Source: Naegleria gruberi (Eukaryota). From it: a DNA stretch of 64,000 nucleotides. A program made the position numbers and the translations under genes. The DNA lies in assembly GCA_000004985.1 (NCBI GenBank), contig GG738915.1. The stretch is one strand, 5' to 3'. This document shows positions 1 to 64,000 of the stretch, piece after piece. Below the pieces are notes generated by a model, which saw only the letters and a program-made list of their open reading frames with translations, ran no database searches and was not told the DNA's origin. The first letter of the stretch is position 1, and every line of letters begins with the position of its first letter.

Positions 1-1277
1 AACCAATAGCAATGCTTTCCACCAACAGCATGATTATCAATGAATGAATTGTTTGGATTGGTAATCCAGAAAACAGCAACTTCACTATCAGATGGAATCA
101 AACGATACGTCAAATCATAAACAGGTTTTGGACGAATTCCCAAATTATGCTTGAACACATTACCTAGTTCAGAACCATCCTCCAAAAAGTATTCATGACC
201 AATAGCATTGAAACAGACATTATCTTCAAGAAGGAAATAATTAGTATCATGAACCACATAACATCTCTGGAATGAATCATGAACAGAACATCCCCTAATA
301 TAGTATTGAGTGCCAAATGTTGAGTTTTGTGCAGTATTTTCCAGGAGGTGAAGATGGAATGAATATCTTCCCATCAAGCCATATTGACCAAACTTTCTAA
401 TTTCAATTCCTTCAACTTGAAATTGAGTAACCAAACGAACCATGAAATGACCACCGAATTGTGAAACATCAGATGAGTTGTCACCTTGGAAGATAATTCT
501 TCTGGAGAGTAAACCAACTTCAGGTCTAATTTCAGCACCATTGCTGTAGTGAGTATAATTGAGTGGAGAATCTAATACAATGGTTTTACCACCGTCTAAA
601 ACTTGAGTAATGACACGTTCTTCGTTTTGATCAGGGAAGTAATTACCAATTTTCCAATTGACCAATGATGAGCTAACTAATCTATAATCATAAACTTCAC
701 CATAATCTGATGAGGCAATAACAATAGAGTCGCCAACTCTCCATGATACGCTTTCCCTCAACTTGATTTGATTAGAACCTTTCTTTGCAGTTACAGCAAG
801 ATCAGTAAAAGTTGGTGAGTCAACTTGACCAAAGATTTGAACCTTGGATCCAGATAAGAAACCAATACCCTTTGAACCCATGTTAACGTTATCAAAAGGA
901 TCGATACCAATTTCACTTTCTGTAGTGCGAGAACCATAGAATGTCAAAATAATCTTGTTAGTAATTGGACATGTGGCACTTCCCATGATCCAGCTAGCAC
1001 CACTTTCAACTCGAATGTAATCTACATGCAAAGTTAAATTGGCATTATCGAAAATGAGAGAACCACCAGATAGTACAGTAATACTGCGAAGTTTGTAAGG
1101 AGGAGATTTATCAACCTTGACAGCTTTGTTAATAGTAATTTGACTGTTGGCAACTGAAAAACCAGACAAAGAACTGAACAAAGTAAGACCGCTTTCAGCA
1201 TGTGGACAATTGGTTTGACAACATGCTAAACATGCAAGTGCAAGAATAGTAACAACTAGTGTCAGTAATCTTGACAT
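1..1277 (-). CDS. Secreted G8-domain protein with a right-handed beta-helix (CEMIP/TMEM2/PKHD1-like). Partial: the 3' end runs off the window start.
   Basis: The minus-strand ATG at 1277 gives 'MSRLLTLVVTILALACLACCQTNCPH...', which reads as a signal peptide. Downstream are the G8 hallmark stretches (..SGGSLIFDN..LTLHVDYIRVESGASWIMGSATCPI..KIILTFYG) and then beta-helix-like segments (RYSFHLHL, GHEYFLEDGSELGNVFKHNLG). The frame is open all the way to position 1. The supplied ORF track does not list this gene because it is incomplete. Confidence 0.55.
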   Translation of the reverse strand, partial: MSRLLTLVVTILALACLACCQTNCPHAESGLTLFSSLSGFSVANSQITINKAVKVDKSPPYKLRSITVLSGGSLIFDNANLTLHVDYIRVESGASWIMGSATCPITNKIILTFYGSRTTESEIGIDPFDNVNMGSKGIGFLSGSKVQIFGQVDSPTFTDLAVTAKKGSNQIKLRESVSWRVGDSIVIASSDYGEVYDYRLVSSSLVNWKIGNYFPDQNEERVITQVLDGGKTIVLDSPLNYTHYSNGAEIRPEVGLLSRRIIFQGDNSSDVSQFGGHFMVRLVTQFQVEGIEIRKFGQYGLMGRYSFHLHLLENTAQNSTFGTQYYIRGCSVHDSFQRCYVVHDTNYFLLEDNVCFNAIGHEYFLEDGSELGNVFKHNLGIRPKPVYDLTYRLIPSDSEVAVFWITNPNNSFIDNHAVGGKHCYW

Positions 1278-2121
1278 TTTTTTTTTGATGTGTTAAAAAA
1301 CAATGCATCGATAGCTCCTTAAAAACAAACTCTTAGAGTAACGCAATATTGATTGATGATACAAGGTCTTATGAGAAGTTACCTGTCAAATGCTACTTTT
1401 TCATTAAATGGTCGTTAAGGAATTAAAGAAAGAGATGAATTTCTTAATATTGTACTTGGTCATCCATTAATGATAACTCTGTATTCCAATAAATCGTTGT
1501 ATTGAAGAGATTGTAACAATGAGTGTTGTTTCGTTTTTTTGTGGTGATTGATTGGCTATTAACATGTCCCTAATTTGGTGTTACTCCTTGAAATTGTAAC
1601 ACATTCGAAAAAATGAAGAATACTTGTTAGTTTCATTGGTAACACACAATGTACAGCGGTATGTTGACGTGTTGATTGAAAGACTGTACAGAAACAAACT
1701 ATCCCTTCTTGTTTCTCAAGGGAAAATAAAGTGGCTGATGAACTGAATTGAGTGTTGTATAAGTTTTCAATTCCAAATTGAAACAGTTCTTCTGGAATGA
1801 GAGAATAAAAACCGTAAATAAGAGGATATTTGGTAAATGATTTTATGGTCCAACAAATGAAGATACTGAGATTTTGAAAAAAACATCTGCATGCTGTTTC
1901 TTCTAAGGAGTTTAATTATTTTCATCAGTACTACAAATAATGGTACACAGAAGGACTTTGAGAATGGTTAATTGGATTTAAACGTGCTTTAGTTTTAATG
2001 TTAAATGTAATGAAACTTAAAAAAGAAGTTTATGAACAATCAAAAACTTAAATTAAGATATTAAAGTGATTTCTAATAATAAATAATATCAAGAATAAAT
2101 TCTGATAAAAATCTTAAAAAA

Positions 2122-2568
2122 ATGCTAAGACTAAAGCCCGTTATTCGAAACTACACTGTTATCGGAAATTCAAGAGGATTTCACACTGCAATAACCCTCA
2201 ACACTGAAATTGTTATCAAAATGCCAAATATCTCTTTTGGTTTTGGTGGAAGCTGTGTTGAAAAGATAGACATTGATTATTGTGTGAAAGAGGGCCAACA
2301 TTGTAAAGCAAACGAAGAACTGTTTTATTTTACAGGATATCCATCTAATATTCATGGTGGTGTTAGAGCCTTACAATCAGGAGTTGTGAAAAAGCTGTTG
2401 GCAGATCCAAACATTCAAGCTCAAGAAGGAGCACGTCAGGAAATGTTGATTTTTGACACTGACGAAACTCCAGTAGAGGAATACTTGCCAGAGAAAAAAG
2501 AACCAATTGAAAAGAAAAAGAAGGTTAAAGAAATTGGAGATGGATTTTATAATATTTCTATTTTTTAA
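2122..2568 (+). CDS. Hypothetical 148-aa protein. The N-terminus looks like a mitochondrial presequence and the tail is Lys/Glu-rich.
   Basis: The ORF is complete, with an A-rich context at its ATG. It begins 'MLRLKPVIRNY...' and ends with a KKKKVKE tail. I recognise no domain. Confidence 0.3.
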   Translation: MLRLKPVIRNYTVIGNSRGFHTAITLNTEIVIKMPNISFGFGGSCVEKIDIDYCVKEGQHCKANEELFYFTGYPSNIHGGVRALQSGVVKKLLADPNIQAQEGARQEMLIFDTDETPVEEYLPEKKEPIEKKKKVKEIGDGFYNISIF

Positions 2569-2645
2569 AGAATAATTATTTCAACAATCTTTTTAATTTT
2601 TATTGTAAATTGGAATTAAACAAAACCACCATATATATAGACAGT

Positions 2646-4607
2646 TCAATTACCAAAATCCAATGGATAGTAACCAACATGATATAGTGGTTCTCTTAGT
2701 GTTGTGTCCTCTAATTTAAATTTCAAATGTTTCTCTGTGCAGTTCAGTAAATGTTCTTCCACTTCTTTGGTTGGATATTCTTCCTTACAACAAGGACAAA
2801 CAGAAAGAGTTCTCAACTGATTGGTATTTTTCTTGCACAGATCAGGTAGATTGTGACAAGTTGCCAAATGTCCAGTTATTAACCGTCTTGGAAAAACCTT
2901 TAAACATCCAGGGCAAGAAATCTCTGCTTCTTGCAGAGCTTGTTTAAATTCCTTTCTCTGTTCTATAATAATGTCGATATCTTGGTCGTAATCAATTTGA
3001 GCCAATGCAGAATTATCATTTGAAATTCTTGGTTTAGTACGAAAAACAAGTTTTGGAATTCTCTCCAGTTGAAGAATTGTTTCATTGTATAGATTAGGTA
3101 ATTTCTTCAATGAGACCCAGCACATTCTCAATGGTTCATCAAGTGTTGTCTTGAGCAAGCTTTCATTTTCAAGAAATTCCATGTATGGGAATGTGAATAA
3201 CAATTTTGAAAGGTTTTTGTAATTTCTTGAAAGAGCAGAAATCAACTCGAAATATTTCACCTCATCATCAGAACCTTGATGTTCATAAAAAGATATTCTA
3301 AAGGTTTCCAGATGAATCATTCCTGAAATGGATTCTCTTACAAGATGACAATCCTTCGACTTGACATCTTCCAATACCAAATGTTTCACATTAACAAATC
3401 CAGAAACGAAAGAACCCAATCTAATTTTCGAAAAAGTATCTCCAATAATCCTTATATACAATTCCTCAATCATTCCTCCAACGCCTCCATAATCAAATGG
3501 AATATTTTGCATTAAGTTTGATTTGAAAAATTCCAATCCCAATGTTAATCTTCTCAATTGTGGATTATTGGCAAGATTTTTACAAAGCTTTTCGAGCGCA
3601 TTTCGAATATCCTGTTCCGTAAGATGTCTTTCAAGGAATTCAGTTGTTATATTATAATCTACCACCCTACTCTTCTCATTGAACACTTCTTTAGCTAATA
3701 ACCCAAAATCTCTTCTATTACTTTTACAAACCAGTAAATTATTACGTGATTCATTATATTCAAACTCTTGCTTGTCATAAAAGTAGAAATTCTCTGAAAA
3801 GTACAAATATTCGAAATGTCCAGAACCGTACCGAGGCAATCTAGTATTGTCAATGACTGCAATTTTTGATTTCATCAAAATATCTCTCAATAAATCCCCA
3901 CTAGAATCCCCAATTACATTTGAAAGTGAAACAAGCTCAGTATCTTTACAAATTTTAACCAACTCTCCCATGGTTTCAACATCCATACTTTCCCATAACT
4001 GTTCTCCATATGGAGATGTTCCATTATTAAACAAGTTAAGTGTAAATCTTCGAAGAGCTGGCTCAGTTAAACTATTTGGAATGTAACCACCTTTCAAACT
4101 CTGCAGTCTTGTGAAAAATTCAATTGATTCTCTCTGTGCTCTATTTGGAATGAAAACTTTCTCATTCCTTGCCAGTGGATTCAAGTTTCCGAATAGACGA
4201 AACTGTTTTCTGCAAATAATATCTTCAATTTGACCATTGATGAATAAATATTTGATTGTCATTCGATTCGATTGGACAAACTTGATCGTGTATCGAACAA
4301 ATGGCAATAGATTTGTTTGAACATTAGTTTCTGTCATGACATTTGGTTGTTCTTCTTCAGATAGGAGCTGGACATTCGGATAGAAATGTAGAGTTTCTAA
4401 TTTTTCAATGACTAATCTTCGCCATGATGAACAAACATGTGGAATAACTTTGATCAACAGGTGAAAATCAAGGTATGGAAATAATCGATAGAAAGCAACT
4501 TCTTCTGGTACCTGTTGATGAAAATACATTTTTTTTAATTGTGTCATATGAACCTTTCGAATATTGTAATAAACGAATCTAAGAAATAATTCAATGGCAT
4601 TGAACAT
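2646..4607 (-). CDS. F-box protein with two C-terminal C2HC (TRAF/FBXO30-like) zinc fingers.
   Basis: The N-terminus carries an F-box-like helix (LPEEVAFYRLFPYLDFHLLIKVIPHVCSSWRRLV). The C-terminus has two C2HC patterns, 'CPGCLKVF...HLATCH' and 'CPCCKEEYP..EHLLNC'. It is a 653-aa intronless ORF. Confidence 0.45.
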   Translation of the reverse strand: MFNAIELFLRFVYYNIRKVHMTQLKKMYFHQQVPEEVAFYRLFPYLDFHLLIKVIPHVCSSWRRLVIEKLETLHFYPNVQLLSEEEQPNVMTETNVQTNLLPFVRYTIKFVQSNRMTIKYLFINGQIEDIICRKQFRLFGNLNPLARNEKVFIPNRAQRESIEFFTRLQSLKGGYIPNSLTEPALRRFTLNLFNNGTSPYGEQLWESMDVETMGELVKICKDTELVSLSNVIGDSSGDLLRDILMKSKIAVIDNTRLPRYGSGHFEYLYFSENFYFYDKQEFEYNESRNNLLVCKSNRRDFGLLAKEVFNEKSRVVDYNITTEFLERHLTEQDIRNALEKLCKNLANNPQLRRLTLGLEFFKSNLMQNIPFDYGGVGGMIEELYIRIIGDTFSKIRLGSFVSGFVNVKHLVLEDVKSKDCHLVRESISGMIHLETFRISFYEHQGSDDEVKYFELISALSRNYKNLSKLLFTFPYMEFLENESLLKTTLDEPLRMCWVSLKKLPNLYNETILQLERIPKLVFRTKPRISNDNSALAQIDYDQDIDIIIEQRKEFKQALQEAEISCPGCLKVFPRRLITGHLATCHNLPDLCKKNTNQLRTLSVCPCCKEEYPTKEVEEHLLNCTEKHLKFKLEDTTLREPLYHVGYYPLDFGN

Positions 4608-4714
4608 CTAAAGTTTATTTCCAATATTTCTCGATCAAAAATTCCAATCCTTTACACAATTTGTATATTCATGTAAAAAGTCTTACTAAATTGACCAAAA
4701 TAATGTAATATAAT

Positions 4715-4936
4715 TTATCTTTTTCTTCCATCATATCTCCAATCATAAAAATCCAGACATTCAATCTCATTAACCGAATCCATATCAATAAAACCAAACT
4801 TCTTCTGACCCTTATTCTTCTTGAGAGATTTACAAGGATTACCAGTATGGCACATATGACAATGAACAACGCGACATTTACCTCTCTGTCTGGTCTTATT
4901 AGTGTGTTTTCCACTCAATTTACCTTCCCTCTTCAT
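4715..4936 (-). CDS. Small basic Cys/His-rich protein, possibly a zinc ribbon. The call is weak.
   Basis: It is a 73-aa ORF with an ATG start, 'GKHTNKTRQRGKCRVVHCHMCHTGNPCKS'. It sits in a tight gap between two larger genes and has no firm homology. Confidence 0.2.
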   Translation of the reverse strand: MKREGKLSGKHTNKTRQRGKCRVVHCHMCHTGNPCKSLKKNKGQKKFGFIDMDSVNEIECLDFYDWRYDGRKR

Positions 4937-5140
4937 GGTGAAATGTTTTGAAAGTGTTCTGATTGAAACGTGTGTTTTGTAGGTGTGTTGTTTTTTCTAA
5001 AGTGATATTTTTAAAAATAGATTTATTGGCGGAAATTAAAAGAAATTAAGATGTTGAAGTGTAAAGTTCGGAGAAAGGAAAACAACGATTTTCATTAGAT
5101 GTTACAATAAATAAATAAATATTTTACAATGGAACTTCGT

Positions 5141-8100
5141 TTAATGCATAGCTTGGCTGTGGATCATGTTGGACACGGAATGGACATTGAAAAGGTTGTA
5201 AATCAGCTCAATGTTTGCTGTTCGAATGGTGTTGAAAGATTCCAAATCTTTGAGCCATTTCTGTAGAGTTTCAATAATGGTATGCTCATCGTCTGGTTTA
5301 TACAATCCAACAGATATGCCAATCTTGAACTTGTTGATAAAGTTTTCCAGTGTTGTGTCTGGTTGATGATGCAGGGCAATGATTGCATTCTGTGTGGCCA
5401 TTGATTGAAATACAATTGGTGGAATGGAAACTTGTGAAGTGCTTTGGACACCACACGAGTCACTAAATAGATTCACATGAGAATAGGGAGAGAAGAGTCG
5501 AAGGTACTTTTTGAGAGTTCTACTACTTGCCTTCTTTCCTGGCTTGACAAAGAGGATTCTATCAGGATGTTTGGAAGTGAGCTCTTCAATCATTGAGAAT
5601 AGTTTGATGGTGTTATGAGTTTTAGATTCCTTTTCATTTCTGTCCTCAGGGAAAATGTCAAGATTGTAAGATAATTTCTTATCGGTGAGAAGAAGGAATT
5701 TCACTCTTTCAAGATGTTCGCTCTCCAAAATATATTTGATGATTTTAAAGACATCAGAATCACATCTACTCTTGTCCTCATCTGAAATCCAATAACTGAT
5801 TATCAAATCCTTTGAATTCTCGTCGAAATTCAGAATATCTTTCGAACCAATAAGAGTAAAGTCTTCTTCGTTAACATTCACCAAATAGTCGAGCTTCTTA
5901 TCAGATGGCTTGACACGGAACTCTGCCAAATTGACCAATGAAGGATACAGAACACTAGTCTTCTCAGATTTGATTTCAATAAGACTTGATAACTGAGTCA
6001 AGTCTGGAGAAGAGAGGAAGGTCTTGTAAACGAGATCATTATGTTTTACACTCTCAGTTATGTACTTGTTGGTGTTTGATGTGTAAATATAATCCAAAAC
6101 TCTAGTAAACTCCATCAATTGAGGAGGTAATAAAGATAATGACTTGTAACCAAGAATGCTTTCCATTATGAAAATATTATGAATATGTCTTGTAGAAATG
6201 ACATATTGAATTAGTAGGGAGAGTACATGTTCATCTGGAGGCAAAGTTTTGTCAACAAAATGATTCAGATGGAAAATATCTGTCGAATATCTTTCCAATT
6301 CTGCACGATAGGCATGATTTGATTCTTCTGTGTCAGTAGTTATTACAACCACGTGCCAGTCGTACTCAAATATAAATGATTCCATGAGTTTAACTATGAA
6401 TTCTCTTCTTCTTGGGTCATTTAAATTTTCTGAGACCAGAATGATTGATCTATCTTTACCCTTGTGGAATTTGTGACGATCATGAGCCAGTCTCCTCAGA
6501 ATTGTCTTTGAGTTTGGAATTTTAACTTTGGTAGTGAGGTATCCTCTGCTTTGCAGCTCTTTTGCTGCCTTCTCCTCAAACATGGTCTTGTATCTCTTTT
6601 TCAGATGTGTGCTGATAAATTTCTTTTCCTCTGACTTTTCAGTGGTTACTCTATCAGAATCCTTTTCCTTCCCTTGAATATTGTGCCAAAGCAAAACTTC
6701 TGGAATGGTCCATGAACGATAGCCTTTTTGGATATATTTCACCCAAAAATCCCAAATAACTAATGAGTATTCCATAGGATTAGAATTAAATCCTCCTAAT
6801 TTTTCAAAAACTTGTTTCTCAATCATAAAGGTGGAATGGAACAAGTTCTTTTGTGTTAACATTTGGGCAGACTCCTGTACTCGATACAGATTGAAGAATT
6901 TCATCTTATCAAATTCTAGTGTCATTGTATTCACCATAGTAATAGGTGTGGATGTGGAGAGTGTTTGGAATTCCAAGAAGAGAAATAATTTCTCAAGCAA
7001 AGAAGGTTCAATCATGCCCCCTGACTCTACAAATGTTAAATACCTCGATTCTTTTGCTAAATATTTACATGCTACAATTTTGAGCATTCCTTGTGATTGC
7101 TTCTCATTTGAAAAGATGAGAGAAATCTTGTTTGTTTTGTACATTTTTCCAATATCTATTGGTGTTTCTTTTTCCACTGTTGGATTGATAGAGAGCCACC
7201 TTAATATCTTATCATGAGGCTCGCCTTGGTTTACAATGATAATCCACTCAAAATATCTAAATGTTTGTCTCAATATTGAGTCTCGTGTGTTCTTGAAGGA
7301 ATCTTCATTTGAAAAAGTAGTAATTACAGAAACTAGAGGAGTATCCTTTCCTAAATGATTATTATTGAATTTGTGAACACTAATTTTCTCTTTGGAATAG
7401 ATTCTATAGTTGGATATTGGAGTATTTTGAAATAAAAATTCATCATATGGCATGACTGGCAGTATCGAGTCCATTTGTTCGAAATATGAAGTATGATTTT
7501 TAGAGTTGACATGTTTAGAAATTATTGAATGGTGTTTTGATTTGACAGTCTTTTTTGAATTTCCTTGTTGATGCTTGCCTCTCAAAATATGTCCATGTGA
7601 ATGAACAGTATCTTTTTGTTGAGTAGCAACTTCCTTATGAATAGGTAGACCCTTGTCATCTTTTGAAATTACAGTCTCTGTTCTATATATTGAAATAAAT
7701 CCTGAAATGAGTAGAAACATCAAAATGATTACAAGTAAGAAGGCAGTAAGTGTGCATTCCACTTTTTCAGGTCTTTCTTTCAGCATTTTAGTTTCATCAA
7801 TTGTATTTCTCTTTCCTCTCTTACTCTTTTTTGCTGGTTTTGAATTAAACCTCTTCATGACGCTCCTATTTCTGTTTGTTGAAGAGTATGAGAAGGAAGT
7901 TCCTCTTTCCACATCGTAATCGTCATCATCATCGTCATCACCATCTAAAGTAATAAAACTTCCTCTTCCTCTAGGTAGATAATCATCACCATCCGAATCA
8001 TCAAACTCCTCCTCTCCACTCGAATTTGTATAATTTTGATAATCTTGATCATCCATGATATTAATTCCCAAATCAACTTCTCTCATTTCTTCGTCATCAT

Positions 8101-8230
8101 CGGAATCATCCACTCCATCATCCCTCCTCTTTTTAAATAACTGTTTATGAATATCAACCTTCCTTTGAGTTGTCGAAGAAGCAGAAGAACCTCCACGAAC
8201 AAACGAAGGAGGACCAAAACCTTGAAACAT
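5141..8230 (-). CDS. Type II membrane glycosyltransferase (GT2-like, Golgi-type) with an acidic cytoplasmic N-terminal tail.
   Basis: The N-terminus is a poly-Asp/Glu tail followed by a single TM helix (TLTAFLLVIILMFLLISGFISIY). A GT-A/GT2-like stretch reads 'LVSVITTFSNEDSFKNTRDSILRQTFRYFEWIIIVNQGEP'. A second 'VVVITTDTEESNH' segment suggests a tandem glycosyltransferase domain. It is a 1029-aa intronless ORF. Confidence 0.45.
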   Translation of the reverse strand: MFQGFGPPSFVRGGSSASSTTQRKVDIHKQLFKKRRDDGVDDSDDDEEMREVDLGINIMDDQDYQNYTNSSGEEEFDDSDGDDYLPRGRGSFITLDGDDDDDDDYDVERGTSFSYSSTNRNRSVMKRFNSKPAKKSKRGKRNTIDETKMLKERPEKVECTLTAFLLVIILMFLLISGFISIYRTETVISKDDKGLPIHKEVATQQKDTVHSHGHILRGKHQQGNSKKTVKSKHHSIISKHVNSKNHTSYFEQMDSILPVMPYDEFLFQNTPISNYRIYSKEKISVHKFNNNHLGKDTPLVSVITTFSNEDSFKNTRDSILRQTFRYFEWIIIVNQGEPHDKILRWLSINPTVEKETPIDIGKMYKTNKISLIFSNEKQSQGMLKIVACKYLAKESRYLTFVESGGMIEPSLLEKLFLFLEFQTLSTSTPITMVNTMTLEFDKMKFFNLYRVQESAQMLTQKNLFHSTFMIEKQVFEKLGGFNSNPMEYSLVIWDFWVKYIQKGYRSWTIPEVLLWHNIQGKEKDSDRVTTEKSEEKKFISTHLKKRYKTMFEEKAAKELQSRGYLTTKVKIPNSKTILRRLAHDRHKFHKGKDRSIILVSENLNDPRRREFIVKLMESFIFEYDWHVVVITTDTEESNHAYRAELERYSTDIFHLNHFVDKTLPPDEHVLSLLIQYVISTRHIHNIFIMESILGYKSLSLLPPQLMEFTRVLDYIYTSNTNKYITESVKHNDLVYKTFLSSPDLTQLSSLIEIKSEKTSVLYPSLVNLAEFRVKPSDKKLDYLVNVNEEDFTLIGSKDILNFDENSKDLIISYWISDEDKSRCDSDVFKIIKYILESEHLERVKFLLLTDKKLSYNLDIFPEDRNEKESKTHNTIKLFSMIEELTSKHPDRILFVKPGKKASSRTLKKYLRLFSPYSHVNLFSDSCGVQSTSQVSIPPIVFQSMATQNAIIALHHQPDTTLENFINKFKIGISVGLYKPDDEHTIIETLQKWLKDLESFNTIRTANIELIYNLFNVHSVSNMIHSQAMH

Positions 8231-8321
8231 TTTTTTAATATTATTAGATTTTTATTTTCGAGATATTTGATGAATCATCTAGTTTACAAAAGCAGATCTC
8301 ATTATCCAATGGAACGACCTT

Positions 8322-9257
8322 TTAAAAGATGGATAATGTTGGGAAGAGTAAGATCCAAAAGCTTATCAATCCAAAAACGTAAAAAGTGGCAATAATTGGC
8401 TTACTCATGTTAAAACTTGGTAAACCCATTTGATTGCAGTAGGCATGTAAAAGGATGGCAGCAAGAATGCAACTAGTTTTTGCATAAATGTATCCACAAT
8501 AGAACCCAAATACTGATGTGTAGGTGAATTGCACTATAACATTAATAAGTGCAGAGGTAATTGACATTTGTCCATGTACAACATGTTCAATAATATGATG
8601 GCAATGGCAAACTCCAAATAAGAGGCATGCAATCAGTAATGAGCTCAACAATGAAATTCCTCCATAATAATACAATAAATAATGTAAACAAGTTCTAAAT
8701 ACAATTTCCTCAGTCAATGGACCCATTACAATAGCTCTGAATGAGAAGAGTCCTTGTTCATCCTGAATAACTTTCTGCTCATCTAAAAGGAAAGCAGTGA
8801 ACAATTTCGACATTTCCAACAAGTTTGTACACAATTCCACAAATGATTTGCACACCCACTCAATTTTCCTCTTAATATAATCCATATTCAATTTGGAAAC
8901 TTCATCTACTTCCAATTCCTCAGCAATAGGACCCAAAAACAAGCAAGTATTCAAAAAGATTGCAATAATTATTGCCAAAATTTGGTAATGTATCTGGGCA
9001 AAATTAAATCCCATAGAGGAGAGTAATCCCATTTCCTGATGACTTTCATGATTTCCGAAGAATAAATAAACAAGACAGGAATAAATTATCGAGACCAATG
9101 ATGACAAGAGAACAGAGATACTTCTACGGCGAACTTGTGATGGTTCATTCCTAGATTTTGCTAAACTTCCATCCCACATATACAACGATCCGACATACAA
9201 TGCCGAGAGTACAATGGCGTGAATGACGGCAAGGATTTCTCTACTATTTTCAAGCAT
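8322..9257 (-). CDS. RCE1: CAAX prenyl protease 2 (RCE1; CPBP/Abi family intramembrane protease).
   Basis: The protein is multi-TM and carries the three RCE1/CPBP motifs: EExxxR (GPLTEEIVFR), FxxxH (FGVCHCHH) and HxxxN (HAYCNQMG). I moved the start to the first ATG (MLENS...) because the track start is a TTG. Confidence 0.7.
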   Translation of the reverse strand: MLENSREILAVIHAIVLSALYVGSLYMWDGSLAKSRNEPSQVRRRSISVLLSSLVSIIYSCLVYLFFGNHESHQEMGLLSSMGFNFAQIHYQILAIIIAIFLNTCLFLGPIAEELEVDEVSKLNMDYIKRKIEWVCKSFVELCTNLLEMSKLFTAFLLDEQKVIQDEQGLFSFRAIVMGPLTEEIVFRTCLHYLLYYYGGISLLSSLLIACLLFGVCHCHHIIEHVVHGQMSITSALINVIVQFTYTSVFGFYCGYIYAKTSCILAAILLHAYCNQMGLPSFNMSKPIIATFYVFGLISFWILLFPTLSIF

Positions 9258-9323
9258 TTTTTTCAAGTTGACTTTATTTATTTAATTATTGTTTAATTTA
9301 AATTAATTTATTATTTACAATGT

Positions 9324-9782
9324 TTACGATATTAATTTTACAAGACCTTGTTGAATGAGATATTCTGCATCACCTAATTGAATGAATAAATGTGAACCTT
9401 GAACCAAGTTATAGGTCTTGCCACTTTCTAGCAATCTACTGCCACTTGTTTTGAGAACTTCAACTTCCACACAATCTCCTTTAGGTGGATTGGCATGTTT
9501 ATATAAATCAAAACCAATTTCCTCTCCATAACTATCAATTAATTGTCTGTATTCTGTTGCAAATCGTTGTTCATTGTCACTCAAATCTTTCCAAATTGGT
9601 GTATTTTCAATACTTTCATGATGCATGGTGCTGATAGATTTCACTCTATCAAATCTTGTATGAAGATAGGCCAATAATATTCTCTTATATCTTTCATAAA
9701 TTGTGAAAATTAAAGCAGATGACATTCTCAGTTTTTCCGTATCCTCTTCACTCAGTTCCTCTTCTTGTGTATTTTGTGTCAT
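9324..9782 (-). CDS. GINS1: GINS complex subunit PSF1 (GINS1). The N-terminal part is probably incomplete.
   Basis: It aligns to PSF1 along its length: 'ILLAYLHTRFDRVKSI' matches TVAYLYDRLLRIRAL, 'NPPKGDCVEVEVLKTSG' matches KPPKSLYIEVRCLKDYG, and the C-terminal 'EYLIQQGLVKLIS' matches EQLIRQGVLEHILS. About 40 N-terminal residues expected from PSF1 are absent. Confidence 0.55.
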   Translation of the reverse strand: MTQNTQEEELSEEDTEKLRMSSALIFTIYERYKRILLAYLHTRFDRVKSISTMHHESIENTPIWKDLSDNEQRFATEYRQLIDSYGEEIGFDLYKHANPPKGDCVEVEVLKTSGSRLLESGKTYNLVQGSHLFIQLGDAEYLIQQGLVKLIS

Positions 9783-10098
9783 GATATCAATAATTTGGTC
9801 CGAAAGAATATTGACTTCTCTGATTACAGAAGATACAAGCTCACTCTGTGATTATTTCATTCCGATCATTTCATCATCAAGCATGTTATATTAATTATTA
9901 AATTATTTAAATAATTATTAGTAATTTGTGATTACTATTGTGTGCAATTATTTAGAAAACCTACGTTGAATGGAGGCAGTGTATTGTCTCTGGTTTGGTT
10001 TAGTTCGTGAAGCAGCTGTAACGATTTCTCCATTTTTTTATTTTTGAAAATTTGAAATGAATCTTGGCGGGAAATAATATTTGAGAAGAATTATTGAT

Positions 10099-57415: not shown

Positions 57416-57434
57416 TGTTGTTTTTTTCAATGGG

Positions 57435-57588
57435 NNNNNNNNNNNNNNNNNNNNNNNNNNNNNNNNNNNNNNNNNNNNNNNNNNNNNNNNNNNNNNNNNN
57501 NNNNNNNNNNNNNNNNNNNNNNNNNNNNNNNNNNNNNNNNNNNNNNNNNNNNNNNNNNNNNNNNNNNNNNNNNNNNNNNNNNNNNNNN
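57435..57588. other. Assembly gap (154 N).
   Basis: A run of N characters. It interrupts the YKT6-like gene. Confidence 1.
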
Positions 57589-57936
57589 TAATGTATATGT
57601 TGACTTTGGATATTTCTTTTCATACTCAACAAGTACTTTATAGAGTAATGAAAAAGCAACTCTAGCTGGATAATCACTATCTGTAACAATAACAGCACTT
57701 AATTGACTATCCACTCTTGTTTGTACATAACAAGTGTATTCATCCTTGACAATTTGTTGTCTTGTTCCTGGAGGATTTTTATCCGATAATAATCTAGTAA
57801 TAAATACAACATATTCACGAACAGTACCACGTTGAAAGAATCCGAATGAAGATAATTCATCATAGCCGGCCAAAATAACTGATTTGCTATTTGCTGTTGT
57901 TGGCTTGTAGAGAACGTGAATGGCCAATAATTTCAT
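57589..57936 (-). CDS. YKT6: SNARE YKT6 N-terminal longin domain. The gene is truncated by the assembly gap and its SNARE/CAAX C-terminus is not recovered.
   Basis: 'MKLLAIHVLYKP..ANSKSVILAGYDELSSFGFFQRGTVREYVVFITRLL...YTCYVQTRVDSQLSAVIVTDSDYPARVAFSLLYKVLVEY' is collinear with human YKT6 'MKLYSLSVLYKG..LLKAAYDVSSFSFFQRSSVQEFMTFTSQLI...YLCHVYVRNDSLAGVVIADNEYPSRVAFTLLEKVLDEF'. Confidence 0.65.
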
Positions 57937-58686
57937 TTTTTATTATTAGAGTTTTAAATTAATTGAATACCGACAGCATCATCATGCTACAACAATACAT
58001 ATTCTAAGTTTATGTTTGCCTCAAATGGAAAGAACATGTCTTTCCAATTAATATCTTTCTTCATCATCATCATGATTATCAATATGAATTAATCTCAAAT
58101 AATAATATATATTTCAATTTCACCCTTAACAAAGAATTCATACTCAAAGCTCCACATAATAATATTAATATTCTCAATACCTCACATTAATCTCTAATGT
58201 GAATGCAACTTTCATGTTTGCATCTCATCTCAATCCAAAAAAATCACTGACGATAAACTATTCAGGAATTTCTAAATCAAAAAAAAGGCCTCACTTCCCG
58301 TACGAGGCTTTATTAGCTGACTTGTTAAAGTACGAACCAAAGTAACCTCTCCACACTAACTTTATAGTTTAGTTGAACAAGTACGCTGTGATGATCATCT
58401 ATTTATGTATTGGCAATTTGAAAAACCATTCTTGTCAATCTCAATATGTATTATTCAATCAAAAATCCAAAAATGAGTATTGGCATTTGAATTTTACAAA
58501 TATGTGATTCCGTAAATTGATAAATACACTTTATTATACAAATAACAGTTTACAAAGAGAATATTCTTCAGTCGTGTGATTCACAACTTGAAAAAAATAT
58601 CGGCACACATCTTACCATCATCATTGTGTCTTGGTCGCGACCACACAGAACAAACAGAGGATTGTGATGATCACAATAATATACAG

Positions 58687-58795
58687 TACTAATAATGATA
58701 ATAATAATAGTGATAAAATAGATAATAATAATATGCTGAATAATAGTGATAAAATAGATAATAATAATTAATAATAATAATAATAATAATATACA
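58687..58795. repeat. Tandem AT-rich minisatellite with an (AAT)n microsatellite.
   Basis: The unit 'aataatagtgataaaatagataataataat' occurs twice, at about 58690 and about 58738. An (aat)n run follows up to 58795. It lies in intergenic DNA inside the putative element. Confidence 0.8.
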
Positions 58796-58855
58796 GTGAA
58801 TAATATATAGTAGTAGTCAGTTGGTAATTAATAATATCCAAGAACAGTGATCCTG

Positions 58856-60517
58856 TTATTTAAGCAGCGGAATGATATCAAATTCATCATCAGCAGTTCC
58901 AACTTGTTGAACATCTCTCTTTTGATTGTCTCTGAAATTTTCCCATTGATCATCTGTCTTGACAACTTTAAAACAGTAATGGTCGAGAATATGTTCAAAA
59001 TCTTCTTTCCACGCATTCTTAACTCTGGTTATGTTGAATTGTTTACAAATGAATCGTATTGCAACTCCAGGTTGCCTGGTTTTGGCTAGGAATCCCATTT
59101 GTTCGGAAGTGAAAAGAACTCTTCTTCCTGCCAATCTAATTTCAGCTGGTTGAGATATTATTTTGTACTCTTTCTTGACCTTATCTACATAATTTGTAAA
59201 AAGCTTGTAGAAAAGCTTGTGAATTTTCTTTTCAGCCTTCAATTCTACCTGTAATTGCTTAATTTCTGCATCCTTCTCTGCTAGTTGCTGCAAAAGATAA
59301 CTATTAACAAACATTGGTTGACTATTGAACATTGGTTGGTTAAATGATTGGCTAGTTTCAGGATTATTCATCAAGCCAAGGAAACTAACTTGATTTTCAT
59401 CAACAAATGAACTACCACTAATGTTATCACCGACAGTAATACTACTACTACTACTACTACTACTACTGCTACTGCCAGCACTACCAGCACTACCAGCACT
59501 ACCAGTACTGCCAACACTACCAGTAGAAAAAATTGGTTGCTCTCTATTATTGGTCTGTTGTGAAATCAAAGGTTGAGGACAAGTAACATCTTTTGGAGTT
59601 GTGGAATTATTCAACATTGATGGATTCACATTGGATGATGATGAACTTAAATGAGGAACTATGGAAGTGGTAACCTTATTTTCAAATATGACACTATTGT
59701 CAACTTCATCACTTTCATTTTGAAACTTGTTTTGGAATTGAGTAAAGGTCATTCTATTGGTGGCTGCCTCATAATTAACACTCATGCAGGACAGGTTCCA
59801 ATCTTCTATTTGATTGGGAAGCAATTCATCACTGTAGTACTTGTTACAATCTGGTACCAGTGATGTAATTACCACTCTAACTTTGCCAGATTCATCACAC
59901 CCAGTCATAGTGTAGCCATTAGCAATATGAACGAGTTGTTTATCCAATTCTATACCCAAACATACATTGGTACCAAAGGAAGGGGTTGAAGTGAGCTGAT
60001 TTCTTGTCATTAAGTTTGCTTTGACAAAGGAGTCCTTATCCAAAAAGCTTTTCAATTCATCCTTATGACTGAGGATTGTACTCTTGTGTTCTAGAATGGT
60101 GGTTAACAGAGCTGTCTTGTTGCCAGAGTATGACAAACTAGTAGAGCTGTATTTACTACATGATATGATGAAAGCCTTCAAAAAGTCACTTTTAAATTTC
60201 AATTCTTCCAACAATTTAACAGTACAATTAGTGTGCTCTAGATTTGCAATTAATTTGGTGAAGGATTGATTATCACTTGCTTTCAGACCATCTTTCCATG
60301 GTAATGGTTTAGCCTTTTTTAAAGGTTGTACAACTTGAATTTGTTGATCAACAGTGGATGATGATGTAATAGTTTGTGATGTTTGTGTAGGAGGATGGAA
60401 TTGAAATTGTTGAGATGATGATATTGTGGCAGGTGTAGGAAGGCTAGCCTTTCTCTTCTTACCTCTCTTTGTTTTAGTTTGGTTCGGATCGAACTGAACG
60501 AAATGCAGTGAAGACAT
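58856..60517 (-). CDS. Hypothetical 553-aa protein transcribed divergently from the transposase gene. It may be encoded by the element.
   Basis: The N-terminus is basic (KRGKKRKAS), and an (ACT)n microsatellite encodes a Ser/Gly run. No domain recognised. Its ATG lies 47 bp from the transposase ATG. Confidence 0.35.
   Translation of the reverse strand: MSSLHFVQFDPNQTKTKRGKKRKASLPTPATISSSQQFQFHPPTQTSQTITSSSTVDQQIQVVQPLKKAKPLPWKDGLKASDNQSFTKLIANLEHTNCTVKLLEELKFKSDFLKAFIISCSKYSSTSLSYSGNKTALLTTILEHKSTILSHKDELKSFLDKDSFVKANLMTRNQLTSTPSFGTNVCLGIELDKQLVHIANGYTMTGCDESGKVRVVITSLVPDCNKYYSDELLPNQIEDWNLSCMSVNYEAATNRMTFTQFQNKFQNESDEVDNSVIFENKVTTSIVPHLSSSSSNVNPSMLNNSTTPKDVTCPQPLISQQTNNREQPIFSTGSVGSTGSAGSAGSAGSSSSSSSSSSSITVGDNISGSSFVDENQVSFLGLMNNPETSQSFNQPMFNSQPMFVNSYLLQQLAEKDAEIKQLQVELKAEKKIHKLFYKLFTNYVDKVKKEYKIISQPAEIRLAGRRVLFTSEQMGFLAKTRQPGVAIRFICKQFNITRVKNAWKEDFEHILDHYCFKVVKTDDQWENFRDNQKRDVQQVGTADDEFDIIPLLK
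59438..59525. repeat. (ACT)n/(ACCAGC)n microsatellite.
   Basis: 'actactactactactactactgctactgccagcactaccagcactaccagcactaccagtactg'. It encodes a Ser/Gly run on the minus strand within the 58856..60517 gene. Confidence 0.9.
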
Positions 60518-60564
60518 TTTTTAAAAAAAACACCAACTCCACAACAAGTGACACTTTCACCATA

Positions 60565-63037
60565 ATGAAAGAGAAGAGCAATCATTCTAAGGCTTGGTCT
60601 GAATCAACTTCATACAACGTTTACAAGAGGAGTAGTACGAATAAGCAACAACAGCCGAATCGTGATGGCCCCAACCATATGAATATTTCTTCTTTTAATA
60701 TCATCAATGGAGAGTGCAATGCTCAACCCTGCAGATTGTTTGATAGGCATCAAGAACAGATTACCAAAGACTATCTTCCAACTTTCATTAGGGATCTGAA
60801 TGCTTATATGCAAGCAAACTCTATCAATTACCAACTCAATTGTCCTCAACAACAACAACAACAGCCTCAACAGCCTCAACAACAACAACCATCATTACCT
60901 CAACAAATACCCATTCATCCAATAGATAATTCATCACTACCTGCTTCTCCATCATCATCACCAGCATCAACACCATCATCATCAATATCAAATGGAGAAT
61001 TAGGAGGACTGGACATTATGCATGACGATGAATTATTAGATAATCTTGATTTCATGGAAGTTTGGAGAGAGAATTCACTGAAAACACTAAGAAAGCAACT
61101 AACAAAGAAAAAGGATTGCTCTATTGGCAATAATAACCAGCTATCCGATCTATTGTTCGATTTATTATCATTCTATACCGATTCCAACATTTCAAAGGTT
61201 AACATGAGACGAATAGTTGATCTCTTTAACAAGTACTCGGCGATTGGAAAAAAGATTCCAACCCTAGATACTCTCATCAGTAGAATTCACAATGTCAACA
61301 ATGAGTATGAAAAGGTGTTTTATTGTTCAAAGCATTTGACAATTATTAAAGGTGAAACTCTGAAGGCTTGTTCCTGCGAGCAGTGTAGTGTTGAGGGTGT
61401 ATTGAACAAGGAGAATATTCAACACTTTTGGACTAAAAGTATTGCCTCGTGCATATCGAATATGGTTGATAGGGTAGGCTTGAGAAGATTCCAATCACAC
61501 CTATCTGCAGCTACTGATACGAACATTCCTACAGTGGGCCAGAAACATTTCATTAAGGACTGTGTTGATGGGGTCGAGTATAAGAGAATTACAGACAAGT
61601 GGGTCATTCGAGATGATCCCAACACTATTTGCCTCACCATTAGTGCTGGCACTGATGGTGGCTCTGTCAACAAGTCCAACTCTAAATCCATCAATCCTCT
61701 CTTCTTTTGGATAAATGAGATTGGATTGAAACACAGATTTTCCTATCCATTGACTTCATTGGCAGCATATGCAAACCACAAAATACCCTATCAAATACTC
61801 TTGTCCAAATTTATAGATGAACTCAATGAATTGGACAAGGGTTTGACTATTGTTACCAAGGGAGGATGTAAATTCTTTCTAAAAGTAAGTTGATTGTGTG
61901 ATTCATTGGACAACAAGCCAATTATTATTATTATATACATGTGAAACAAATAATTGGATTTGTTACTAGGTTCGCCTCTTTCAAATGATTGTCGATTTGG
62001 TTGCTGCAAAAGATCTCTTGCAAATCAATGGTCACTCGGGCCTGTGTGGTTGTAGATGGTGTCTACATACAGGAGAAAAGAAGGGAGAAAACACTGGTGT
62101 ATTGTATTGTGTAGGAAATTCGAGTTGTAATAGTGGAGTCAATAGAGTTTGGAATAACATGATGCCACAGTTTTGCAAGTTGCAAAAAAATGAGATTTCT
62201 TCCTTCGATGGTGTGATTGGCATTTCAATTCTCCTCAAGCTCAGCTATTTTAGATGGACTACTCAGGTAGCCTGTGATATTTTGCACAATCTTTTAGAGG
62301 GTCTTTGTAAAAAGATTTTGAAGAATATTTGTTCATTGTACAAGACTTTAATTCCCAGCATTGATGGTAAGTATTGTGGTGAAGGAAAAATATGAACTCA
62401 ACCCCTTGGTGTTTAACAATTGAAAGAACGCATCAAACTTATTGAAACTCCATCCATGTATCACAGAGAGATTCGTTCCTTGAATGAGGCTGCAAAGTTC
62501 AAAGCTATTGAATACTACATGTTGTTTGCCTATTGTAAGGATGTTTTCAAGAATATTATTTCTGAAAACCACTTTAACATTTTAAAAAGTGTCGAAACTT
62601 TTATAGGACTCATCATGAATCCTAGTGAGAAGAGTGAGCAAGCCAAGGCAAGTCTATTGCAAATGGCATTCAACTTGCTGCGAAGTGTGGAAATTGAATT
62701 TGGTGAGGAGGATATTACAATGGCCTCTCATACTGTTCTTCACTTTCCATTGTAAGTACTCTACTAGTTATTCAGAATGCAACAATTTCATATAATATTG
62801 ATTGTTTTAAAACAAGATCGATATGGAATTTGGGCCCTCTCTATACCAAACTCTACGTTCATGTTGGAGGATTTGATGGGCTCTCTTACTTCCTCCATCT
62901 ATGGAGGAAAGGCCAACATGGATCATAAGGCTTTGGAGAATTGGTCCATTCATCAAATGACCAGTTTGAAAAGGGTGAGACAATTCACACTTCCAATACG
63001 AACATGGTTTGTATCTTTTTTTTTCAAAGGTTGCTGA
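60565..63037 (+). CDS. CACTA/EnSpm-type (Transposase_21/Tnp2-like) transposase. Four exons: join(60565..61884, 61970..62366, 62427..62751, 62776..63037). The last exon may be decayed.
   Basis: 'FYCSKHLTIIKGETLKACSCEQC' matches the CACTA motif 'ACPNDCILYRGE..LEACPVC'. 'ICLTISAGTDGGSVNKSNSKSINPLFFWINEIGLKHRF' matches 'LsLSsDGfnPF....S.WPV.l.iyNLPP..R'. 'GHSGLCGCRWC' and 'VACDILHNLLEGLCKKIL' (matching D.MH.EKN) follow. The introns have GTAAGT donors and are 85, 60 and about 24 nt long. The first ATG is at 60565; the track ORF begins at a GTG. Confidence 0.6.
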
Positions 63038-63142
63038 CACTCATAATGTTTAGATATTGTTAAATTTTCCAAGGGTATTTTTCAAATTGTTAAACGGTAA
63101 GTAGTTTCATGTCATGATAATGATTAATGATTGTATCACTAT

Positions 63143-63250
63143 CACCACCACCACCACCACCACCACCACATGAATATATTATTATCAATAATTCGTCGTC
63201 TCATCATCAACATCATCATCTCATCATCATCTCATCAACATCATCATCAT
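63143..63250. repeat. (CCA)n and (CATCAT)n microsatellites.
   Basis: 'caccaccaccaccaccaccacca...catcatcaacatcatcatctcatcatcatctcatcaacatcatcatcatc'. They are responsible for the low-complexity ORF 63127..63426. Confidence 0.85.
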
Positions 63251-64000
63251 CAAATAGACAAAAGGAAGGAGGATGGAAATTATTAAACTTGTTGGATAAT
63301 TCAATCATGATTCAGGATCATCTTTCCACTATTGATGCCATTCCTTGCTTTGCTGTTACTGGTGGTTCTTCTAGTGGTTCTCCTCAATACCTTCCTGTAC
63401 ACAGAAATGACATGTTTCTATTGTAATGTGTTGAATAATAAATTTAATGAAATATTTATTGTAATATTATATTTAATTATTACATTGTAATGACAATTGA
63501 ATATTTATTGAAAACATTGTAATAACATTCCAAGTTGAATCCACTTTAATCTTTACATTTTGGGTTTTATTCAAGTCCAAATTGGTCAATTGAAAAAGTA
63601 TAATAGGCAATGATTAATTGGGATTCAGAATCGATAGAGTGTACAATAAGCTTACTTTTCAAAGAACGCAAGCGACCTCTCTTCCTGTACTCGTTAAAGT
63701 TAGGGTGAAAGTAACCTCCCAACGTACTTTCAAAAAAGCCTCGTACGGGTTCCTTCACCATCAAACCACATACAGAGAAAATTTACAGTAATTTTTAAGG
63801 ATATTAGGTTGAACCATTCTTGATCGGGCACTTCTTAAGGAAACTCTGAGAGTATATCATTGTGAATTATTGAAGATTGTTTAAATTATTAACTACATCC
63901 CGAAGAAGGAGTGTAGAAATTGTATCATATTGTATAGATAGCTAAACATAAGAAGGATGAGGAATTTTCGACAATACAAATCATCGACTGTACAGGTATC

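Follow-up and report, generated by a model that had tools for sequence, protein, structure and literature searches.

The last part of a 64,000-nt stretch of Naegleria gruberi DNA (hereafter the window; G+C 33.6%, with one assembly gap) contains two genes arranged head to head between a pair of short inverted repeats. The gene on the + strand encodes a predicted transposase and the one on the − strand a 553-aa partner protein, and the terminal inverted repeat (TIR) transposon that carries them spans window positions 58297–63749, i.e., 5,453 bp. We interpret this interval, with considerable confidence, as one copy of a class II (TIR) cut-and-paste DNA transposon from a Naegleria-specific branch of the CMC/CMCT superfamily (CACTA/EnSpm, Mirage, Chapaev; fold kin of Transib/RAG1), carrying two head-to-head genes and defective as assembled. 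Its parts, together with the target site duplication (TSD) on either side, are as follows, the transposase being given exon by exon:

58295–58296, no strand: left TSD copy (TT), which abuts the left TIR on the outside and is the same as 63750–63751.
58297–58314, + strand: left TIR, 5'-CCCGTACGAGGCTTT(ATT); 15 nt are perfectly complementary to 63735–63749, and 18 nt match at 94%.
58315–58420, no strand: left subterminal region, with short AAAGTWA-type motifs (at 58339 and 58357) and a 35-nt direct motif (58320–58354).
58856–60517, − strand: partner gene, an intronless open reading frame (ORF) encoding 553 aa; its product has conserved regions at both ends (an N-terminal domain and a C-terminal block) as well as a Ser-rich linker and a coiled coil.
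60518–60564, no strand: head-to-head spacer of 47 bp between the start codons, presumed to be a bidirectional promoter.
60565–61884, + strand: transposase exon 1, coding for a low-complexity N-terminal region, a zinc-finger-like block (CxxH...CxCxxC) and D364, the first catalytic Asp (codon 61654–61656).
61970–62366, + strand: transposase exon 2, with the second catalytic Asp, D449 (61994–61996), the C(2)C pair (C468/C471) and the DILHNLLEG motif.
62427–62751, + strand: transposase exon 3, with H(3)H (H674/H678, 62729–62743) at its end; the flanking intron positions are common to the metagenome relatives L001 and L002.
62817–63006, + strand: transposase exon 4, with the catalytic Glu, E698 (62867–62869), an extra A at 62846–62848 and a probable extra C at about 62988–62990.
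63054–63096, + strand: transposase exon 5 (DIVKFSKGIFQIVKR), from a homology-guided splice model, matched to the L001 exon GDAFILNNVKYMIMGK.
63258–63426, + strand: transposase exon 6 and stop (...AIPCFAV...VHRNDMFLL*; stop 63424–63426), with a tail that is kept in L001 and N. fowleri.
63640–63731, no strand: right subterminal region, with AAAGTWA-type motifs and the 35-nt motif (63689–63723).
63732–63749, − strand: right TIR, the reverse complement reading 5'-CCCGTACGAGGCTTT(TTT).
63750–63751, no strand: right TSD copy (TT).

The ends of the element are marked by the inverted 15-mer CCCGTACGAGGCTTT, which is exact at 58297–58311 and 63735–63749. With up to two mismatches allowed, it finds two matches in the window, compared with 0.02 expected by chance, and the junctions read TT/CCCG...CGGG/TT. 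The same pattern recurs in related elements. A 2-bp TSD is perfect in six of seven complete elements (the window element and all five N. fowleri copies, the exception being L001), for which we estimate a chance probability of about 1e-6 (about 0.076 per element), and all 15 termini examined begin with CCCG, save one with C>T at the first base; the TIRs are 15–20 nt long. At the third flanking base the two sides differ in every element (CTT/TTC in the window), and the 3-bp (CACTA-type) TSDs expected by the first-pass annotation of this DNA, longer TSDs and an outward extension of the TIRs fit none of the elements. Likewise, the CACTA-type termini implied by that annotation are replaced by 5'-CCCG...CGGG-3'. 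Given these defined ends and the 2-bp TSDs in the related loci, we set the limits of the element at 58297–63749, which corrects but lies close to the 58288–63760 (about 5.5 kb) of the first pass. The identical inverted 15-mer pointed out in the first pass proves to be exact and to represent the true termini, and the adjacent direct motif, then described as 29 bp at about 75% identity, is seen as 35 nt at 74% identity (58320–58354 and 63689–63723).

In the subterminal regions of about 110 bp, AAAGTWA occurs in two copies on the left and three on the right, against 0.07 per 100 bp in the window as a whole. These are small numbers, and at least three copies are found in 0.08% of the 110-bp windows in the 64 kb, all within the right subterminal region. 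This enrichment weakly supports the subterminal motifs as candidate binding sites. The 35-nt motif has the same orientation at both ends though the adjoining TIRs are inverted, and AAAGTWA units are present in both orientations, so that the ends are not simple mirror images. Scans of 57–64 kb for Rfam families, tRNAs and tandem repeats returned nothing relevant.

We built the six-exon transposase model from the N. gruberi protein P0002, encoded on an 87-kb scaffold, from the metagenome homologues L001/P0003 and L002/P0004, which are only 53% and 44% identical to the window transposase, and from the N. fowleri copies. GTAAGT donors lie at 61885, 62367, 62752 and 63097. The GTAAGT introns of the four-exon gene first proposed at 60565–63037 are retained, but the gene comprises six exons and extends to 63426. 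Intron 1 (61885–61969) is missing from L001, L002 and N. fowleri, and it is confirmed as an intron by the uninterrupted coding sequence of these homologues at this point. Introns 2 and 3, in contrast, occupy positions that are introns in L001 and L002 too; with intron 1 specific to the N. gruberi element, this transposon gene has apparently gained or lost an intron. The C-terminal tail encoded by exon 6 has counterparts in L001 (PCFVV...CHNDKFFL*) and N. fowleri (IPCFQV...VHRNDLFLI). In the corrected protein, CSKH...CSCEQC lies at residues 254–274, AGTDGG at 361–366, GHSGLCGCRWC at about 461–471 and CDILHNLLEG at 542–551; every motif of the Transposase_21/Tnp2-like series quoted in the first pass is found in the + strand gene. 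The public model for this locus, the N. gruberi 'predicted protein' P0001 (1030 aa, on a 260-kb scaffold), is 100% identical to the window transposase over exon 1 but is a chimera in which exon 1 is fused to unrelated downstream coding sequence, and the transposase is consequently mis-annotated in the N. gruberi reference proteome.

Exon 4 as assembled does not maintain its reading frame. A tblastn search with P0002 and comparison with P0002, L001, L002 and N. fowleri reveal an extra A within 62846–62848, a 1-nt insertion that shifts the frame between GPLYT and NSTFMLED, six codons before E698, and a second extra base, a C near 62988–62990, is probable. No canonical GT–AG splice combination restores the frame through STFMLED, a segment kept in P0002, L001, L002 and N. 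fowleri. Since the frameshift separates H(3)H from E698, the window copy as assembled cannot encode the catalytic glutamate. Judged by its sequence, this copy is defective as assembled, contrary to the earlier description of the element as intact-looking, and with its transposase gene broken it could be mobile only with transposase provided in trans by an intact paralogue. P0002, the product of a near-identical copy, carries neither indel and, apart from these, is identical to the window protein over the part of the gene beyond exon 1.

Alternatively, the copy may be intact and autonomous, with the apparent frameshifts in exon 4 representing assembly or base-calling errors or being bypassed by unmodelled splicing. 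The local assembly is indeed imperfect, with its gap only 860 bp from the element, the extra A sits within a short A run (AAA), and over about 440 aligned residues the window protein and P0002 differ only by the indels, as expected of a very young copy. We nevertheless consider this explanation unlikely: apparently two independent extra bases would have to be erroneous, the second of them outside a homopolymer, the conserved STFMLED segment is not rescued by any canonical splicing, and the public gene model at the locus also fails to read through, being the chimera described above.

The placement of the element in the CMC superfamily, originally proposed as a CACTA/EnSpm-superfamily DNA transposon, is borne out by a family profile, by a reverse hidden Markov model (HMM) and by the predicted fold. 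The family profile was built from four members; among 1.84 billion representatives it detects 1,281 proteins at E ≤ 1e-3, of which 214 reach E ≤ 1e-10, and it picks up proteins positive for PF02992 (Transposase_21) at E 1e-23 to 1e-11. A Pfam scan of its 63 top matches yielded seven Pfam families, including Transposase_21 (50/63), DUF1258 (40/63), DUF4218 (7/63) and, weakly, Plavaka (2/63), and several of these relatives exceed the PF02992 gathering score (a protein from Filamoeba, for instance, at 5.6e-17). When the search is reversed, with an HMM built from 101 non-Naegleria relatives alone, the window protein obtains 306 bits (E 7e-92), compared with 11 bits for the best of 2,000 shuffles, and homology to bona fide PF02992 members is therefore found by profile in both directions. 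The reverse HMM alignment lines up the N-terminal CxxC...CxxC finger, D364 (GTDG), D449 (IVDLV), C468/C471 (CRWC), the DILH/DxxH motif, H674/H678 (HTVLH) and E698 (FMLED), and D364, D449 and E698 correspond to invariant or near-invariant columns among 111 relatives. The window transposase thereby displays the signature D...D-x18-C(2)C...H(3)H-x19-E, in which D449 is 19 positions from the first Cys (C468) and the second His (H678) is 20 positions from E698. The catalytic Glu is E698, and the E inside DILHNLLEG is not the catalytic residue. Word-indexed homologue searches with the transposase returned only three to four close relatives.

The structural model, which ends before exon 5 (63054), was predicted with AlphaFold2 from a 111-sequence alignment and has a predicted local distance difference test score (pLDDT) of 90.2 and a predicted TM-score (pTM) of 0.90; a 4-sequence alignment gave a pLDDT of 38. 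When it is compared with the PDB using Foldseek, the top 36 matches are to RAG1 (E 1.3e-10 to 4e-7, TM-score up to 0.60), followed by HzTransib (8e-6 to 1.6e-4), and the next match has an E of 0.08. The predicted fold matches those of RAG1, the P element, Transib, a Mutator-family transposase and retroviral integrases, and it would place the DDE triad on an RNase H-like core. The distances of 19 and 20 positions equal those of D708–C727 and H942–E962 in RAG1. CMC, Transib and RAG1 are known kin, and the equal spacing agrees with this kinship; by analogy only, it supports nick-and-hairpin cleavage. For the RAG1/Transib-like transposase fold, the element contributes an example from a heterolobosean.

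Several observations weigh against our assignment or against parts of it. The first-pass annotation had named Transposase_21, DUF4218 and DUF4216 as the families to search with HMMs, and the window transposase matches none of the three, nor any other Pfam or NCBIfam family, at E ≤ 1; homology is reached only through the family profile, the reverse HMM and the predicted fold. Direct hmmscan gives no PF02992 or PF13960 match above the gathering score, and N. fowleri P0153 and P0156, as well as P0009, have no direct Pfam match at E ≤ 0.1. Sequence-profile searches of the PDB do not reach RAG1 or Transib and return chance zinc-finger or coiled-coil matches only. Among the 15 termini examined, none has the 5'-CA..TG-3' ends typical of CMCT, and the TSD of L001 is imperfect (AA/CA). 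The element is present as a single copy in the window, with no further copy or fragment in these 64 kb, and P0002 might be an allelic haplotig and not a second insertion. Introns 4 and 5, including the 47-nt intron 63007–63053, are modelled from homology only, and we infer the hairpin mechanism, the binding of the TIRs and the role of the partner.

A different superfamily, such as KDZ (Kyakuja/Dileera/Zisupton), Plavaka, the P element or MULE, with the CACTA-like motifs arising by convergence, would account for the missing direct match to Transposase_21, for termini and a TSD unlike canonical CACTA and for the weak Plavaka match in two of the 63 relatives. It is nonetheless very improbable, as 50 of the 63 profile-detected relatives match PF02992, several of them above the gathering cut-off, and the window transposase has the C(2)C...H(3)H signature by which CMC/CMCT is defined, spaced as in RAG1 (PMC12730594 for the definition). 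The kinship with KDZ suggested in the first pass receives no support, since the 63 relatives match seven Pfam families and none of these is a KDZ family, and Plavaka itself is now placed within CMCT (PMC12730594). The Pfam Transposase_21 model misses an entire protist branch of the CMC superfamily, which a family profile or the predicted fold recovers. As a separate observation, in the metagenome contig L009 a Transposase_21/DUF1258-positive relative adjoins a hAT-like gene (DUF4371, Dimer_Tnp_hAT), the two lying at 3769–6249 (−) and 7356–9923 (+); these may be nested or adjacent transposons.

The partner gene, annotated as an N. gruberi predicted protein (P0165), and the 47-bp spacer correspond to what had been reported in the first pass, and the suggestion that the partner is a second element protein is upheld by its conserved head-to-head position in L001 and N. 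fowleri. Such a partner is present in all Naegleria-clade elements, with sizes of 553, 548, 522 and 499 aa, and the spacer has counterparts of 36 bp in L001, 89 bp in L002 and 86 bp in N. fowleri. The window partner is homologous to those of L001 (E 4e-10) and the N. fowleri locus L003 (E 1.5e-9), and in a four-way alignment the other three partners are 18–23% identical to it. All share the N-terminal domain, Ser-rich linker and coiled coil, and also the C-terminal block, except in N. fowleri, where the protein ends earlier. From these alignments, we conclude that the partners are homologous and fast-evolving. Pfam searches with the partners of the four elements gave no match beyond weak, mostly coiled-coil-type ones at E 0.015–0.9, and no sequence match was found in the PDB; a word-index homologue search with the partner returned the query alone, probably swamped by low-complexity words. 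The 553-aa protein can be described as a family-specific orphan and is probably an accessory factor that may, for example, bind the ends or the subterminal motifs. L008, a more distant relative from a metagenome and very rich in AT, likewise has a partner gene placed head to head; its 903-aa product shows no similarity to the Naegleria partner and has no Pfam match. The L008 gene pair lies at 928–3639 (−) and 3744–5909 (+), with ends near 610–800 and 7760–7850 and TTTTCAAGTTTTCAAA-type repeats inverted on either side; a Ulp1-like protease suspected at the C-terminus of its partner was dropped for want of a Pfam match.

Related elements were compared in metagenomes and in N. fowleri. L001 is a complete 5.1-kb metagenome element with the same head-to-head gene pair and CCCGTACGAGAGTTTTTTT at both ends, and the left end of L002 reads CCCGTACGAGC. 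The first 10 nt, CCCGTACGAG, are common to five termini of three elements (both ends of the window element, both of L001 and the left of L002), while the DNA outside them is unrelated. In the N. fowleri assembly GCA_008403515.1, an exhaustive profile search found a multi-copy family with at least five dispersed copies, of which five loci were compared, at the following positions:

L003, 6074–10991: N. fowleri copy.
L004, 6073–10900: N. fowleri copy.
L005, about 6239–11114: N. fowleri copy, an internal-deletion derivative that keeps its TIRs and TSD.
L006, 5055–10060: N. fowleri copy.
L007, 6663–9395: N. fowleri copy, a second internal-deletion derivative that keeps its TIRs and TSD.

The N. 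fowleri unit is 4,918 bp long, and its five dispersed copies are 94–100% identical and share the same two-gene layout. Their 17-nt TIR, CCCGAGCACTCGAAATT, has CCCG termini, the 2-bp TSDs are perfect and differ by copy (TT, CT, TA, CA and AA), and the flanking genes are unrelated among the loci. L004–L007 have about 83 bp extra near the right end (element position 4832) compared with L003, either because L003 has lost this stretch or because the other copies have gained it by insertion or duplication. The high identity of the copies, their perfect TSDs and the deletion derivatives suggest that this sister family has been recently active. As N. fowleri is a pathogen, we regard this family as the most useful lead from the comparison. 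Together with the second N. gruberi copy on another scaffold, this multi-copy family bears out the expectation that other copies would be found. The idea that the N. gruberi locus is not a mobile element, and that its two genes are host or domesticated genes descended from an ancient transposon, with the flanking repeats as relics, might draw on the intact ORF of the partner and on the finding of only two annotated transposase copies in N. gruberi, but it is very improbable, given TIRs that are perfect over 15 nt beside an intact TSD, a broken transposase gene that would be unexpected for a domesticated gene under selection, near-identical dispersed N. fowleri copies at unrelated loci with different TSDs and deletion derivatives, and different flanking genes at every locus.

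Extending our reading of the window element as a CMC transposon, we tentatively raise the possibility, which we hold to be rather less than even, that the Naegleria elements form a distinct unnamed CMCT lineage defined by CCCG...CGGG termini, a strict 2-bp TSD and a head-to-head orphan accessory gene, with the N. fowleri branch still active and containing apparently intact copies beside derivatives. If so, it would provide a native cut-and-paste vector for Naegleria. We know of essentially no genetic tools for Naegleria, and one might try, as a vector for insertional mutagenesis or transgenesis, an intact copy from N. fowleri together with its TIRs and partner gene.

As a plausible transposition mechanism, the transposase would recognize the short TIRs (5'-CCCGTACGAGGCTTT), and probably the nearby subterminal motifs as well, and then excise the element. 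By analogy with RAG1/Transib, excision may begin with a nick, after which a hairpin would form on the flanking DNA. The seven elements show that reinsertion takes place across a 2-bp staggered cut, from which the 2-bp TSD results.

Compared with known systems, the window element resembles EnSpm/CACTA in its DDE transposase with an N-terminal zinc finger, DxxH and GPLW...F.FE motifs and profile-level homology, as well as in its short TIRs, possibly in its subterminal short repeats, and in its second element-encoded protein. EnSpm/CACTA elements in the strict sense, however, have CACTA or CAC..GTG termini and a 3-bp TSD as opposed to CCCG...CGGG and 2 bp, and the window element also departs from them in lacking a direct PF02992/PF13960 match and in having a second protein without similarity to TnpA-type families. 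In maize En/Spm, both proteins come from one transcription unit via alternative splicing, whereas the window element has a gene of its own, transcribed divergently, for the second protein. Outside Naegleria, the closest named relatives are proteins of animals and Amoebozoa (thrips, bivalves and Filamoeba), which match both Transposase_21 and the C. elegans family DUF1258. Mirage has a 2-bp TSD, as does the window element, and 40 of the 63 relatives match DUF1258; we place the element at the level of the CMC superfamily. With RAG1, ProtoRAG and Transib it shares the fold and the RAG1 spacing of catalytic residues and zinc ligands, by analogy implying a nick-hairpin reaction, but differs from Transib/RAG1 in the absence of detectable sequence-profile similarity, in its 2-bp TSD as opposed to the 5 bp of Transib and ProtoRAG, in its termini, which are heptamer-like CAC in those two, and in having no RAG2-like partner.

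The 2-bp TSD has precedents, since TSDs of CMCT elements range from 2 to 5 bp, with 5'-CA..TG-3' termini 'in most cases' (PMC12730594), and some animal CMC elements have 2-bp TSDs, yet keep 5'-CAC...GTG-3' termini (PMC6004678). PlavakaA, a fungal CMCT lineage, is similar in its 2-bp TSD and CMCT motif set (PMC12730594) but has TGT..ACA termini, and the Plavaka model is touched only weakly by two of the 63 relatives. KDZ is set apart not only by its absence from the Pfam matches but also by the 8-bp TSD of Zisupton compared with 2 bp in the window (PMC12730594). Within Naegleria, the N. fowleri family (FDP41_002017, FDP41_010941) falls in the same clade as the window element, with a profile E of 6e-117 and about 36–39% identity over most of the protein by tblastn, and the two agree in gene layout (head to head, with homologous partners), in their CCCG termini and in having a 2-bp TSD. 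However, their TIRs diverge after CCCG (GAGCACTCG vs TACGAGGCT), the N. fowleri transposase is without introns 1, 4 and 5 of the window gene, and no nucleotide-level similarity was found between the window element and the N. fowleri family.

Conceptually, the find is no surprise: CMC elements occur widely in eukaryotes. The rarity attributed to such a copy in the first pass was overstated. In N. lovaniensis, 'CMC-EnSpm' as classified by RepeatModeler amounts to 38 pieces, 69.8 kb and 0.23% of the genome (PMC6125883). Moreover, homologues from N. fowleri already carry the UniRef names 'Transposase domain-containing' and 'DUF4218 domain-containing', so that the presence of the superfamily in Naegleria is already on record. 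To our knowledge, the anatomy of the element (CCCG TIRs, 2-bp TSD, orphan partner and intron pattern) is not described in the papers cited here. Two 'predicted protein' genes thus become part of a delimited transposon, and its unusual combination of CCCG termini and a 2-bp TSD is documented.

About 360 bp to the left of the element, at 57427–57936 on the − strand, lies a SNARE-like gene with a Longin domain (PF13774, E 1.2e-10), which is broken by the assembly gap (N-run 57435–57588).

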